64,000 nt of DNA, taken from assembly GCF_036507355.1 (NCBI RefSeq), contig NZ_AP027877.1. The stretch is one strand, 5' to 3'. The stretch's first letter is position 1. Every line of letters starts with the position of its first letter. Positions 5,166-10,973 of this stretch are shown here, one piece after another. The notes below the pieces were generated by a model. That model was not told the DNA's origin and did no database searches. It saw only the letters and a list, made by a program, of their open reading frames with translations. Origin of the DNA: Escherichia coli (GTDB lineage: Bacteria; Pseudomonadota; Gammaproteobacteria; Enterobacterales; Enterobacteriaceae). The position numbers and the translations under genes are program-made.

Positions 5166-5203
5166 TAGGCCTGATAAGACGTGTGAGCGTCGCATCAGGC
5201 AAG
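5166..5203. repeat. REP-like palindromic element in the cysI-cysH spacer
   Basis: Palindrome gcctgataagacgtgtgagcgtcgcatcaggc read directly from the sequence. Confidence 0.6.
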
Positions 5204-5221: not shown

Positions 5222-5956
5222 ATGTCCAAACTCGATCTAAACGCCCTGAACGAACTGCCGAAGGTAGATCGCATTCTGGCGCTGGCGGAAACTAACGCCC
5301 AACTGGAAAAATTGGACGCTGAAGGCCGCGTAGCCTGGGCGCTGGATAATCTGCCCGGTGAATATGTGCTTTCTTCCAGCTTCGGCATTCAGGCGGCGGT
5401 GAGCCTGCATCTGGTGAATCAGATTCGCCCGGATATTCCAGTGATCCTCACCGATACCGGTTACTTGTTCCCGGAAACCTACCGCTTTATTGACGAGTTA
5501 ACGGACAAACTCAAGCTCAACCTGAAAGTGTACCGTGCTACCGAAAGCGCAGCCTGGCAGGAAGCACGCTACGGCAAACTGTGGGAGCAGGGCGTTGAAG
5601 GCATTGAAAAGTACAATGACATCAACAAAGTCGAACCGATGAACCGGGCGCTGAGAGATCTGAATGCGCAAACGTGGTTTGCTGGCCTGCGCCGCGAACA
5701 ATCCGGCAGCCGCGCCAATTTACCGGTGCTGGCAATTCAGCGTGGCGTATTTAAAGTGCTGCCGATTATCGACTGGGATAACCGAACGATATATCAGTAT
5801 CTGCAAAAACATGGCCTGAAATATCACCCATTATGGGACGAAGGATATTTATCGGTGGGCGATACCCATACAACCCGTAAATGGGAACCCGGCATGGCGG
5901 AAGAAGAAACGCGTTTCTTTGGCTTAAAAAGGGAATGTGGGTTACACGAAGGGTAA
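5222..5956 (+). CDS. cysH: phosphoadenosine phosphosulfate (PAPS) reductase
   Basis: ORF 5069..5956; start at internal [14 protein letters not shown] (244 aa); C-terminal ECGLH motif. Confidence 0.93.
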
Positions 5957-5973
5957 ATATTGCCGGATAAATT

Positions 5974-6012
5974 AAACGCCTCTGTCAGAAATGATGGGGG
6001 CGTTTTTATTTT
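5974..6012 (+). terminator. rho-independent terminator downstream of cysH
   Basis: Stem aacgcc/ggcgtt (with G-rich 3' arm) followed by tttttatttt. Confidence 0.6.
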
Positions 6013-6128
6013 GCGAGCAGCATTCCTGATTTTAAACGTGAACGCCGCTGGAAGAATTATCAGGTATAGAATGGCGTCGGGTGCTTGAGGCTGTCTGGCG
6101 TTAAGCATTCGCGAGGTTCCAGATGGAC

Positions 6129-6181
6129 AAAAGCCCCAGGCGATATTTCTATCAACCTGAGGCTCGCGTTCGAACGTAGCA
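6129..6181 (-). ncRNA. candidate Sok-like antisense RNA of the hok locus
   Basis: Minus strand: -35 TTGCCT (6216..6211), 17-bp spacer, -10 TAACAT (6193..6188), then about 55 nt ending in an 8-bp hairpin (gcctcagg/cctggggc) plus UUUU; antisense to the hok leader. Confidence 0.4.
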
Positions 6182-6219
6182 ATTCGGATGTTAGTCTCTT
6201 CTTTGCAGGGAGGCAAGAC

Positions 6220-6372
6220 ATGCTAACAAAATATGCCCTTGTGGCAATCATAGTACTGTGTTGTACAGTACTGGGATTCACGCTCATGGTAGGCGACTCG
6301 TTATGTGAGTTGAATATCAGAGAGCGTGGTATGGAGTTTAAGGCAGTTCTCGCTTACGAATCGAAGAAGTAG
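6220..6372 (+). CDS. Hok/Gef-family type I toxin (small membrane peptide)
   Basis: 50-aa product [50 protein letters not shown], closely resembling chromosomal Hok peptides (HokE-like as I recall it); SD gcagggagg upstream; leader begins with the hok-type motif ggtgcttgaggctgtctggc. Confidence 0.8.
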
Positions 6373-6737
6373 CCACCACGTGGGGGTAAAACCCCGCGTA
6401 TTGAATTGTGATGGTTTGGTCTCCTGCACCCTTTTTTAAATTTATATTTTTTATGTGAATATATTGTCTCTATTTATTATTATGAATTTCAAATGAAAAT
6501 CATAAATTTATTCACAATATAAATGTTTTATTGGCTGATATATATCACAGATAATTTTTAAAATATGCGTAAATATCCTTTAAGTTTACTGAAGGATAAA
6601 AATATTGTGACTTTCTTTGATTTCTGGGGAAAAACCCGACGCGACGAGAAAGAAGGGGGTGACGACTATCACCTTCTTTGCTGGCATTCGCTGGATGTGG
6701 CCGCGATGGGCTATTTAATGGTTAAAAGAAATTGCTT

Positions 6738-6746
6738 CGGGCTGGC
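6738..6746. repeat. IS1 target-site duplication, left copy (CGGGCTGGC)
   Basis: Identical 9-mer immediately flanks both IS1 ends. Confidence 0.85.
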
Positions 6747-6761
6747 GGTAATGACTCCAAC

Positions 6762-7265
6762 TTATTGATAGTGTTTTATGTTCAGATAATGCCCGATGAC
6801 TTTGTCATGCAGCTCCACCGATTTTGAGAACGACAGCGACTTCCGTCCCAGCCGTGCCAGGTGCTGCCTCAGATTCAGGTTATGCCGCTCAATTCGCTGC
6901 GTATATCGCTTGCTGATTACGTGCAGCTTTCCCTTCAGGCGGGATTCATACAGCGGCCAGCCATCCGTCATCCATATCACCACGTCAAAGGGTGACAGCA
7001 GGCTCATAAGACGCCCCAGCGTCGCCATCGTGCGTTCACCGAATACGTGCGCAACAACCGTCTTCCGGAGCCTGTCATACGCGTAAAACAGCCAGCGCTG
7101 GCGCGATTTAGCCCCGACATAGCCCCACTGTTCGTCCATTTCCGCGCAGACGATGACGTCACTGCCCGGCTGTATGCGCGAGGTTACCGACTGCGGCCTG
7201 AGTTTTTTAAGTGACGTAAAATCGTGTTGAGGCCAACGCCCATAATGCGGGCTGTTGCCCGGCAT
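6762..7265 (-). CDS. insB: IS1 transposase InsB (InsAB' C-terminal part)
   Basis: 167-aa [30 protein letters not shown] ... NIKHYQ. Confidence 0.9.
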
Positions 7266-7459
7266 CCAACGCCATTCATGGCCATATCAATGATTTTCTG
7301 GTGCGTACCGGGTTGAGAAGCGGTGTAAGTGAACTGCAGTTGCCATGTTTTACGGCAGTGAGAGCAGAGATAGCGCTGATGTCCGGCGGTGCTTTTGCCG
7401 TTACGCACCACCCCGTCAGTAGCTGAACAGGAGGGACAGCTGATAGAAACAGAAGCCAC
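7184..7459 (-). CDS. insA: IS1 InsA (transposition repressor / InsAB' N-terminal part)
   Basis: 91-aa [43 protein letters not shown]. Confidence 0.9.
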
Positions 7460-7514
7460 TGGAGCACCTCAAAAACACCATCATACACTAAATCAGTAAG
7501 TTGGCAGCATCACC

Positions 7515-7523
7515 CGGGCTGGC
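7515..7523. repeat. IS1 target-site duplication, right copy (CGGGCTGGC)
   Basis: Identical to 6738..6746. Confidence 0.85.
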
Positions 7524-9451
7524 TGATTATTTTCGTCAATTAGGGATTTCTGACAAGGAACAGGCGGCTCAATTTTTCGCCTGGTTGTTGTGCTGGCACG
7601 ATATTGGAAAATTTGCCCGCTCATTTCAGCAACTTTACCTGCACCCACAACTCAAGGTTCCGGAAGGCGCAAGAAAGAATTACGAAAAGATCTCTCATTC
7701 AACGCTGGGCTACTGGTTGTGGCATCATTATTTAAGTGAATGCGAAGAATTGCTTCCTGCCTCTTCACTCTCTACTCGCAAACTTAAACGTGTAATAGCG
7801 ATGTGGATGCCCATGACTACCGGGCATCATGGTCGGCCCCCTGACCGTATTGATGAACTGGATAATTTTCTGCCTGAAGACAAAGTTGCCGCGCGAGATT
7901 TTCTCCTTGAAATCAAGGCACTGTGTCCGCTCATAGAGATTCCCACATTCTGGGATAATGACGAGGGAGTTGAACTTTTAAAACAACTTTCCTGGTATAT
8001 CTCTGCAACAGTCGTACTTGCAGACTGGACGGGTTCGTCAACGCGATTTTTTCCACGCGTCGCACACCCAATGGATATTAAAGATTACTGGCAGAAAACT
8101 TTAGTTCAGGCTCAAAACGCCTTAACCGTCTTTCCTCCAAAAGCAGAAACCGCACCTTTCACCGGAATTAATACGCTGTTTCCTTTTATTGAGCACCCGA
8201 CACCATTACAGCAAAAGGTGCTGGATCTGGATATCAGCCAGCCAGGGCCACAGTTATTTATTCTGGAAGACGTGACTGGCGCAGGTAAAACAGAAGCGGC
8301 GCTTATCCTGGCGCACAGGTTGATGGCTGCGAGGAAAGCACAGGGTTTGTTTTTTGGCCTGCCAACAATGGCAACGGCCAATGCCATGTACGATCGGCTG
8401 GTCAAAACCTGGCTTGCTTTCTATTCGCCAGAGTCCCGCCCCAGCCTGGTGCTGGCACACAGTGCCCGCACATTAATGGACCGCTTTAATGAATCACTCT
8501 GGTCCGGTGATTTAGTCGGGTCAGAAGAACCGGATGAACAAGCGTTCAGTCAAGGATGTGCAGCCTGGTTTGCCGACAGTAACAAGAAGGCTTTACTGGC
8601 TGAAATTGGCGTCGGCACGCTGGATCAGGCGATGATGGCGGTGATGCCGTTCAAACATAATAATCTGCGGCTTCTGGGGCTGAGTAACAAAATCCTGCTG
8701 GCTGATGAGATCCACGCCTGTGACGCTTACATGTCATGCATTCTTGAAGGGCTGATCGAGCGGCAGGCGCGTGGTGGAAACAGCGTCATTTTGCTTTCTG
8801 CTACGTTATCCCAACAGCAGCGCGACAAACTCGTCGCCGCCTTTGCGCGTGGCACAGAGGGCCAGCAAGAAGCTCCGTTCCTTGAAAAGGATGATTACCC
8901 CTGGCTGACGCATGTCACGAAATCCGATGTGAACTCACACCGGGTAGCGACGCGCAAAGACGTTGAGCGTAGCGTCAGCGTGGGTTGGCTTCATAGTGAA
9001 CAAGAGAGTATTGCGCGTATCGAATCGGCGGTAAGTCAGGGAAAATGCATCGCCTGGATCCGCAATTCTGTCGATGACGCTATTAAGGTTCATCGTCAGC
9101 TGCTTGCCCGCGGCGTCATTCCCGCTTCCAGCCTTTCACTCTTTCATAGCCGCTTTGCTTTTAGCGATCGCCAGCGAATCGAAACGGAAACGCTGGCACG
9201 CTTTGGTAAAAATTGTAATTTAAAAAGATCATCGCAAGTCATTGTTTGTACACAAGTAATTGAGCAAAGTGTGGATATTGACCTGGACGAAATGATCTCC
9301 GACCTTGCCCCCATTGATTTGCTGATCCAGCGAGCGGGGCGATTACAGCGACATATCCGCGATATTAATGGTCAGTTAAAGCGTGACGGAAAAGACGAGC
9401 GTTCCCCTCCTGAATTGCTGATTCTGGCCCCCGTCTGGGACGACGCTCCTG

Positions 9452-9781
9452 GTGACGAATGGTTCGGCAGTGCCATGCGTACGCGCCTTTACAGAGGCCG
9501 CGCTTAAAGTCTCACCAACCGGAAAACAAAACAGCTTTGCCAGCCGTGCCTACGCCTCCTGGGCGCTGGCGGAAAAAGGCACTGTTCAACCGCGTTCTCT
9601 GGCGGCGGCTTTCTATGAACCCATTAATGGTACCCGTCAGTTAGATGTGGCGGTGCAGCGTATTACAACGCTTCGCGAAAACATGAATACGGTCTACGAA
9701 CAGAAGACTGAATGCGCAAGTTTTGACGTGATGAACAAACAGGGAAGCATGAAGGACGTACTGGACTTTATCTGCGCGTAA
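9452..9781 (+). other. cas gene remnant: either the 3' end of a Cascade gene (likely cas7e/casC) or a frameshifted Cas3 C-terminal segment
   Basis: 109-codon ORF in the +1 frame relative to cas3, overlapping its end by 55 nt; its stop lies 10 nt before the casD-like start with an intervening SD (aagggg), an operon-internal spacing. Confidence 0.35.
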
Positions 9782-9791
9782 GGGGCGGCTT

Positions 9792-9870
9792 ATGAGCCAA
9801 TATCTGATTTTTCAGCTTCATGGGCCAATGGCATCCTGGGGCGTCGATGCCCCCGGCGAAGTGCGTCATA
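9792..9870 (+). pseudogene. casD: casD (cas5e) 5' remnant, about 25 codons, fused out of frame to cas1
   Basis: N-terminus MSQYLIFQLHGPMASWG matches the Cas5e N-terminus as I remember it from E. coli (MRSYLILRLAGPMQAWG); similarity is lost where the Cas1 frame begins. Confidence 0.6.

Positions 9871-10973
<1,103 letters not shown>

Follow-up and report, generated by a model that had tools for sequence, protein, structure and literature searches.

In the type I toxin-antitoxin system hok/sok of R1, the hok mRNA has been described as alternating between two mutually exclusive folds, the conservation of which is the signature of the hok family switch. The frame mok begins 8 nt downstream of a GAGG box that alternates between the elements ucb and dcb, and translation of hok requires translation of mok, though only up to the hok Shine-Dalgarno (SD) sequence (PMC9841398). 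Regarding recoding, the TadA of E. coli edits UACG in hok mRNAs and thereby converts Tyr to Cys, at position 29 for hokB and at position 46 for hokC, hokD and hokE, with an editing level of 40% for hokE. On the chromosome, a member of the family has been named hokX/sokX, with both hokX and sokX beside cysH in 90% of uropathogenic strains and sokX alone in the rest (PMC12736100; PMC7232551), and the same locus is also called hokG (PMC13017025). For orthologues at this site, transcription has been reported on both strands, as the hok leader is transcribed in O157:H7 EDL933 (PMC5331693), the hok coding sequence (CDS) reaches a coverage of up to 1270 reads in uropathogenic isolates (PMC13017025, supplement) and SokX was detected under all growth conditions by RNA-seq in K-12 (bioRxiv 10.1101/2024.06.20.599902). 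Besides, the CFT073-type orthologue is edited (Y46C) at 10-37% in clinical isolates (PMC13017025).

The locus considered here lies in a stretch of 64,000 nucleotides of Escherichia coli DNA, hereafter the window, and is this known chromosomal hokX/sokX type I toxin-antitoxin, with all expected parts present and nothing unusual about it; a hokX/sokX module for which an R1-like mechanism can be proposed is, with little room for doubt, the best explanation of the sequence. It stands immediately downstream of cysH, the end of this gene being at 5956, its terminator at 5974-6005 and the hok start codon at 6220. This position after cysH and the high nucleotide identity to annotated members place it in the hokX/sokX orthologous group, the identity reaching 99.2% with TUM13936, 99.3% with an O157:H7 strain and 96% over 406 nt with the orthologue of CFT073 (C_RS15775/WP_000956458.1), which itself directly follows cysH. 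Among the 5426 complete E. coli genomes, 5425 matched at least part of the locus with a query of 601 nt, and 4182 have no less than 80% of 6150-6440 downstream of cysH, all E. coli matches being chromosomal and carrying the RefSeq label 'Hok/Gef family protein'. In K-12-like genomes, the leader up to the hok ATG is kept together with sokX (b4701) and the hok CDS is absent, the annotation of K-12 MG1655 placing sokX between cas3 and cysH. A plasmid or phage origin was rejected, as all E. coli matches are chromosomal and no true plasmid carries the full locus: the full-length 'plasmid' matches are records of 4.8-5.4 Mb, i.e. mislabelled chromosomes, and the smaller plasmid records gave only hokE-like or partial matches with a coverage of at most 68%.

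From the raw letters, a first-pass annotation had proposed an uninterrupted hok/sok-type type I toxin-antitoxin between cysH and cas3; family and leader matches, sokX orthology, RNA folds and selection all bear this out, and every feature it listed was recovered in place or at most 1-2 bases away. No insertion sequence (IS) is found within 6067-6437, and the IS1 that splits the adjoining cas3 (6747..7514, with the 9-bp duplication CGGGCTGGC) lies outside the hok transcript; the window shows a decayed cas operon beside an intact hok. As roughly three in four complete E. coli genomes carry the locus, which is already named and annotated, the value of the present work is mainly one of correct annotation; it also provides a useful positive control, since reading the bare sequence was enough to retrieve a genuine type I toxin-antitoxin and nearly every part of it.

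The comparisons below draw on 25 loci with the Sok terminator sequence in common, collected from one-genome-per-species contigs and belonging to eight genera (Escherichia, Kluyvera, Pseudocitrobacter, Atlantibacter, Pseudescherichia, Klebsiella, Pluralibacter and Enterobacter), of which the 25 complete mRNAs were aligned. All coordinates of hok and its mRNA refer to the + strand and those of Sok to the - strand. The hokX CDS (6220..6372, from ATG 6220 to TAG 6372) encodes 50 aa and is preceded, 6 nt before the ATG, by a Shine-Dalgarno sequence GGGAGG (6208-6213) read from the sequence, where GGAGGCAA is invariant across all related loci. This 50-codon Hok/Gef frame and its SD had been called at the outset, and the family alignment then advised gave a match to the Pfam profile HOK_GEF (PF01848) over the full model (positions 1-42 of 42; E=3.7e-10, 39.7 bits). 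The peptide has the traits of the family, in which a toxin of about 50 aa combines a hydrophobic helix at the N-terminus with a polar C-terminal part bearing the conserved Cys and an (A)Y/C-E motif: it counts 50 aa, its residues 5-24 are hydrophobic, and its Cys14, Cys29 and Tyr46 (in LAYE) agree with the positions described earlier (PMC5630033; PMC12214031). The exact protein is recorded at NCBI as an E. coli Hok family toxin and its closest K-12 paralogue is HokE (78% peptide identity). As the curated cut-offs of NCBIfam are reached neither for the HokA equivalog NF007290 (53.6 bits for a cut-off of 89) nor for the Hok subfamily NF007279 (40.1 bits for a cut-off of 73), the protein is neither HokA nor a member of that curated subfamily. 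When other loci were compared with the hok of the window, dN/dS lay between 0.04 and 0.25 for 22 of the 24 pairs (dS reaching about 1.4), and the remaining two concern relatives so close that they hold too few changes to be informative; such values point to a peptide that is under purifying selection. Upon expression, 42 of 45 tested Hok homologues proved toxic, HokE among them, according to a preprint (bioRxiv 10.1101/2025.08.07.668861), and the present toxin may behave likewise.

Within the AYESKK tail, the TadA A-to-I motif UACG occupies 6355..6358, and editing of A6356 would recode Tyr46 (TAC) to Cys. The arrangement is that of the edited hok genes, in which a TAC codon in UACG stands at position 29 or 46 and Cys is hard-coded at the other; here it is Cys29 that is hard-coded, and TAC specifies Tyr46. 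All of the 25 loci have TACGAA at this site, and its 21-nt context is identical to that of the edited site of the CFT073 orthologue C_RS15775 (p.Y46C). In the predicted local fold, which is the same in hokE, the editing site lies in a 9-nt loop; since this fold is no more stable than that of shuffled sequence (z = 0.36), the evidence is limited to the motif and its identity to that of the edited orthologue. Given that the Tyr46 codon is the same editable one as in the edited clinical isolates, the activity of Hok from the window allele is probably tuned by TadA. As a side observation, the first-pass annotation had recognised neither that the locus was already named nor that its AYE motif is an RNA-editing site.

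Opposite the hok leader, alignment to the annotated sokX of K-12 (b4701, 59 nt) delineates a SokX homologue of 58 nt running from 6180 to 6123 on the - strand, made of a 5' tail of ~15 nt, a hairpin (6165-6156/6140-6131) and a U run (6132..6129). It is predicted to fold into a single-stranded 5' tail followed by a 12-bp terminator hairpin and UUUU (-22.1 kcal/mol, z = -3.6). The promoter (6188..6216) combines a -35 box TTGCCT (6216..6211), a spacer of 17 nt and a -10 box TAACAT (6193..6188); it matches 8 of 12 consensus bases, which is below the threshold of the promoter scan, and the 30 promoter-carrying bases are identical in the window and in the region upstream of K-12 sokX, both hexamers being conserved across all related loci. 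The homology to K-12 sokX, the identical promoter and the terminator fold together make the initial reading of a Sok-like antisense transcript of ~55 nt with promoter and terminator hairpin the right one, and the homology to SokX argues for an RNA encoded in cis, complementary to the hok leader and provided with its own promoter and terminator. The Rfam match named 'sok' was rejected as antisense evidence, as RF01794 matches the + strand and hence models the hok leader and not Sok. A second promoter-like site on the - strand, within hok (TTGCCA, 16 nt, TAGCAT; 6247..6220), was treated as due to chance: it is not conserved in hokE-type loci and is deleted in K-12, where SokX is still made. As for hok itself, the probable -10 box is TAGAAT (6067..6072), 6 nt before the 5' end of the mRNA, and this box (TAAGAT in hokE-type loci) stands at a constant distance from GGGTGC in all related loci. 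The consensus promoter scan did not call this hok -10. There is no good -35, because of which the hok promoter is probably weak.

The full-length hok mRNA would measure ~359 nt (6079..6437), its 5' end being placed by homology and its 3' end presumably falling at a run of six U. The hok-type leader start noticed at first reading is indeed there, with GGGTGCTTGAGGCTGTCTGGC at 6079 and a match to RF01794 over 6079..6235 (105.3 bits for a gathering score of 59, E=3.4e-24). In the minimum free energy structure (MFE) of 6079..6438 (-136.7 kcal/mol, z = -5.0), hereafter the closed form, the two ends of the mRNA are paired, GGGUGC/GAGGCU (6079-6092) with GGUCUC/GCACCC (6418-6431), which answers favourably the question of fold-back pairing raised at the outset. 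In other words, the element tac (GGGUGC-UU-GAGGCU, 6079..6092), whose partner is fbi in the closed form and ucb in the open one, is predicted to lie on fbi (GGUCUC-CU-GCACCC, 6418-6431), itself followed by U6 (6432-6437) as the presumed 3' end. The tac/fbi duplex amounts to -21.8 kcal/mol, a value equalled in only 3 of 2000 shuffles, and stays between -18 and -26 kcal/mol in all 25 loci though the fbi sequences differ, the core end helix (helix 1) being 100% paired in the 25 sequences. No separate terminator hairpin follows fbi here, whereas the Klebsiella and Enterobacter relatives have one.

Between the ends, several segments have alternative partners. In the closed form, the element ucb (AAAAGCCCC, 6129..6137) is predicted to pair with the GGCU within GAGGCU (6132-6135 with 6161-6164 in the MFE). 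When the mRNA is open or nascent, its predicted partner is tac, and it meets 6079-6086 in both the 62-nt nascent fold and the Rfam consensus (97% of alignment cells paired). In the closed full-length MFE, a hairpin at 6188..6221 sequesters the SD and start codon of hok through AUGUU/GACAU and GUCUCUU/GGGAGGC (helices 5 and 6, with 94% and 89% of cells paired), and the 3'-tail segment GAAUUGU (6403..6409) pairs with the loop of the Sok target at 6179-6185 (84.7% of cells, with compensatory changes at 3 of 7 pairs). In the open form, the Sok-target hairpin (6159..6198) joins GAGGCU 6159-6164, the homologue of the R1 mok SD, to the dcb-like AGUCUC 6193-6198, and 6166-6174 to 6183-6191; it forms in the MFE of the 3'-truncated mRNA, with 84.8% of cells paired and compensatory changes at 4 pairs. 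Beyond the hok stop codon, a stem-loop ACGUGGGG-GUAAAA-CCCCGCGU (6378..6399; 98.5% of cells paired, one compensatory pair) is expected to be the protective 3' end of the processed, active mRNA, as in the R1 model (PMC9841398). Of the 3' exonucleolytic activation and the RNase III cleavage of the Sok duplex that belong to hok/sok-type loci, the putative substrates are visible in the sequence, namely this 3' hairpin and a removable tail of ~38 nt.

Over the alignment of the 25 mRNAs, the closed fold had 91.8% of cells paired, against 35-50% in controls with slid partners, and the open fold (tac/ucb, the GAGGCU/AGUCUC target and the 3' hairpin), which is also the Rfam consensus structure, had 92.8% against 30-55%, with compensatory changes at 10 pairs. 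Covariation thus indicates that the two mRNA folds of the R1 hok model, each of which excludes the other, have been retained across 25 loci and eight genera. Thermodynamic accessibility was set aside as a test of the switch: the accessibility of the hok SD changes little upon predicted truncation (0.33 to 0.43) and, in the MFE of the truncated mRNA, the 5' end pairs with 6100-6110 and not with ucb, which is why covariation was relied on instead. Two weak Rfam matches, far below their gathering scores, were also discarded, ctRNA_p42d (5972-6014) being the cysH terminator and naRNA4 (5169-5201) a REP-like element.

Following the R1 paradigm, a weak promoter would yield the hok mRNA of ~359 nt, which would at first be locked shut, with its 5' tac on its 3' fbi and ucb over the GAGGCU box, a local hairpin covering the SD and AUG of hok and the 3' tail covering the loop contacted by Sok. 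Slow trimming of the 3' end, down to the hairpin at 6378-6399, would remove fbi and the tail; tac could then pair with ucb, the GAGGCU/AGUCUC hairpin would form and the mRNA would become open to both ribosomes and Sok. The constitutive Sok of ~55 nt would pair with 6123-6180, block expression and trigger decay of the mRNA. Upon loss of Sok, the 50-aa Hok would insert in the inner membrane and depolarise the cell. Editing of A6356 by TadA (Tyr46 to Cys) could act as a further level of control by allowing a Cys29-Cys46 disulfide. For this locus, the processing, the decay induced by Sok, the toxicity and the way in which leader and hok translation are coupled are thus proposed by analogy.

The main competing explanation, which is improbable yet deserves consideration, holds that the locus is structurally complete and physiologically silent, being kept by drift or hitch-hiking, with a Hok that is never harmful and no killing. 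It draws on earlier work in which hokA, hokB and hokC on the chromosome gave neither post-segregational killing nor activation by rifampicin (cited in bioRxiv 10.1101/2025.08.07.668861), on the lack of an R1-type mok start in the window and on the fact that ~23% of complete E. coli genomes, K-12 included, have lost the hok CDS without obvious cost. A silent locus nevertheless accords poorly with dN/dS values of 0.04-0.25 across eight genera, with two alternative folds preserved by compensatory changes, with an editable TAC codon that is invariant and with an orthologue that is transcribed and edited, as well as with the toxicity of 42/45 Hok homologues mentioned above.

The mok question calls for more caution. 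An 18-codon frame on the + strand (6123..6179, from ATG 6123 to TAG 6179, with GAGG 6113-6116 lying 6 nt upstream) had been presented in the first pass as mok-like and as a sign that translational coupling may be lost; the frame does exist, but neither the role nor the loss was supported by the comparison, the ATG being present in only 9 of 25 loci and located in a helix. Taken at its strongest, this idea makes ATG 6123 the mok start and has the stop at 6177 uncouple hok, leaving a toxin that can no longer be translated, in line with the R1 hok needing mok translation up to the hok SD (PMC9841398) and with the GAGG suitably placed upstream. It is very improbable, as the ATG is missing from 16/25 otherwise intact related loci, is clade-specific and is predicted to be paired in both folds (P(unpaired) 0.07-0.08), its U belonging to a covarying pair of the inner tac helix (columns 15/50, with G-U in 11 sequences and U-A in 11). 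Besides, the position of the R1 mok start is 7-8 nt after GAGG 6159-6162, i.e. ATG 6123 is ~50 nt upstream of it relative to this conserved box, and the same arrangement recurs in thousands of genomes with a peptide under purifying selection. The frame from ATG 6123 is thus real and probably non-functional as mok, and its early stop is uninformative on the loss of coupling because the hok family manages without this frame.

No start codon follows the homologous GAGG (6159-6162) in the window and in most of the 25 loci, four relatives (two Kluyvera, Pluralibacter and K. michiganensis) having an ATG 7 nt after it. A better candidate mok analogue than ATG 6123, although on weak evidence, is a + strand frame of 12 codons (6188..6226), which starts at ATG 6188 and the stop of which (TAA 6224-6226) overlaps hok codons 2-3. 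ATG 6188 is invariant (29/29 loci), its frame is open to or past the hok ATG in 24/25 loci and its equivalent in hokE-type loci is in frame with hok; moreover, a frame ending at the hok start fits the R1 finding that mok is translated only to the hok SD. On the other hand, ATG 6188 has no SD, an open frame of 12 codons is not unlikely by chance and the three bases are under further constraint, since they serve in the Sok -10 box and pair with the hok start, so that coupling through this frame is something that we infer. It is conceivable, as a tentative proposal, that in the hokE/hokX branch the R1-type mok is missing and hok translation is controlled differently via AUG 6188, either as a leader frame or as an anti-start hairpin. 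In a first form, AUG 6188 may be the start of a 12-codon leader that terminates over the hok AUG, with coupling by termination-reinitiation, and in hokE-type loci the same AUG, being in frame, may give an N-terminally extended Hok. In a second form, AUG 6188 may act only within an anti-start/anti-SD hairpin, the pyrimidine box AGUCUCUU toggling between the hok SD and GAGGCU, and Sok may then silence hok by capturing GAGGCU; if true, this would amount to a mok-independent version of hok control. The Mok element of the subfamily is a small point of some value, as a recent Hok catalogue explicitly describes Mok as hard to predict; our literature search found no named mokE.

In some archaea, toxin/antitoxin RNA pairs safeguard cas genes. 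That hok, which is directly upstream of cas3, might likewise be an addiction module stabilising the adjacent type I-E CRISPR-Cas is scarcely credible and was rejected on co-occurrence counts, as only 2239 of the ~4182 genomes with hok also have the cas3-proximal flank, the hok of CFT073 adjoins iap with no cas genes, K-12 has cas genes and no hok, uropathogenic strains have hok in 90% and type I-E cas in 46% of cases (PMC12736100), the cas operon of the window is decayed next to an intact hok, and hok is not enriched near defence systems according to a section heading of bioRxiv 10.1101/2025.08.07.668861.

Compared with the other hokX/sokX loci, the hokX/sokX locus of the window is found at the same site after cysH, shares 96-99% nucleotide identity over the whole locus, and has the same Sok promoter and an identical 21-nt editing context. 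The differences from other alleles are limited to Asn32 in Hok, which is Ser in most of them, a single pair of the 3' hairpin that is G-U in place of G-C, and a small number of changes affecting the 5' tail of Sok and the target of Sok. In K-12, by contrast, the hok CDS is wholly absent, and the window differs further by the IS1 in the adjoining cas3.

With hokE/sokE of K-12 (b4415/b4835), the locus has in common the Sok terminator hairpin, the invariant ATG, the SD, the TACGAA editing site and the 3' architecture. In hokE-type loci, hok and the upstream ATG share one frame (12 codons, MVVPSSHGGNIN-Hok), whereas the ATG of the window is out of frame and its reading stops on the hok start. The tac and fbi elements of hokE differ from those of the window in a compensating way (GGGUGCCU with AGGCACCU), and in K-12 an IS186 cuts hokE 19 nt beyond its stop codon, unlike the uninterrupted locus described here.

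Regarding R1 hok/sok, the likeness extends to a Hok-family peptide, a cis-antisense Sok with a promoter overlapping the hok SD region, the tac/fbi pairing of the ends, for which tac/ucb is the alternative, the switching of a GAGG box between ucb and dcb, and a 3' hairpin with a tail beyond it that can be removed (model in PMC9841398). Peptide identity with R1 Hok is only ~41%. Whereas mok of R1 has 70 codons and starts 8 nt after GAGG, the window has no such frame; it likewise has no separate terminator after fbi. Unlike R1, the locus of the window is chromosomal and absent from true plasmids, and its Hok carries an editable Tyr46 codon.

Between the hokX locus of the window and its counterparts in K-12 (L003) and CFT073 (L030), the allelic differences are concentrated in the 5′ tail of Sok and the target loop (6164..6180), where the window carries GGCTCGCGTTCGAACGT-AGC, CFT073 GGCCTACGTTCGAACCTAAGC and K-12 GGCCAGCGTTCGAACCCAAAC. 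It is this region that is expected to determine Sok/hok specificity. A second sigma-70-like site lies on the minus strand within the hok coding sequence (6247..6220), with TTGCCA, a 16-nt spacer and a TG-extended TAGCAT; if used, it would yield a longer antisense RNA covering the SD and start codon of hok. Since hokE-type loci do not conserve this site and K-12 has lost it by deletion, its resemblance to a promoter is probably due to chance.

Regarding the hokE-type loci themselves, the invariant upstream ATG lies in frame with hok, 11-12 codons 5′ of it (e.g. MVVPSSHGGNIN-MLTKY...), in K-12 hokE (L004), L005, L010 and L023, as well as in L006, L007, L012 and L028; translation from this start could conceivably yield a Hok of 61-62 aa with an N-terminal extension, and no description of such a form in hokE-type loci was found in the literature. 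Besides, in two Escherichia genomes (L010, 3876-4749; L023, 8349-9221) hokE-type loci are duplicated in tandem at a distance of about 500 nt, and every copy has a leader, a Sok region and an fbi of its own. Elsewhere, a truncated sokX leader of the K-12 type, fused to the cas3 upstream region, was met on a 3294-bp contig (L027, JAEWTL010000007.1) labelled 'MAG: Bacillota bacterium'; the contig has the appearance of DNA from E. coli K-12 that was mis-binned into a Bacillota MAG or contaminates it.

In the window, the type I-E CRISPR-Cas operon adjoining hok (6565..10683) is decayed. An IS1 element (6747..7514), flanked by a 9-bp target duplication (CGGGCTGGC), splits cas3, the reading frame of which stops at 9507, i.e. 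at profile position 665 of 878. 3′ of cas3 come a casC remnant restricted to its last ~78 residues (9452-9781), a casD-like start (9792) and a cas1 devoid of its first ~35 residues (9820-10683). On the other side of hok, two Rfam matches remained below threshold: the naRNA4 match on the minus strand (5169..5201; 27.9 bits vs. 59.5) is a REP-like palindrome in the intergenic region of cysI and cysH, and ctRNA_p42d was rejected as the identity of 5972..6014 (plus strand), this site being the cysH intrinsic terminator.

As for the presumed 3′ end of the hok transcript, no separate terminator hairpin is present 3′ of fbi in the E. coli-type hokX loci (6418..6445 in the window), where a U6 run directly follows the long-range helix formed by tac and fbi. 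In contrast, the Klebsiella and Enterobacter relatives exhibit a normal hairpin terminator after fbi.
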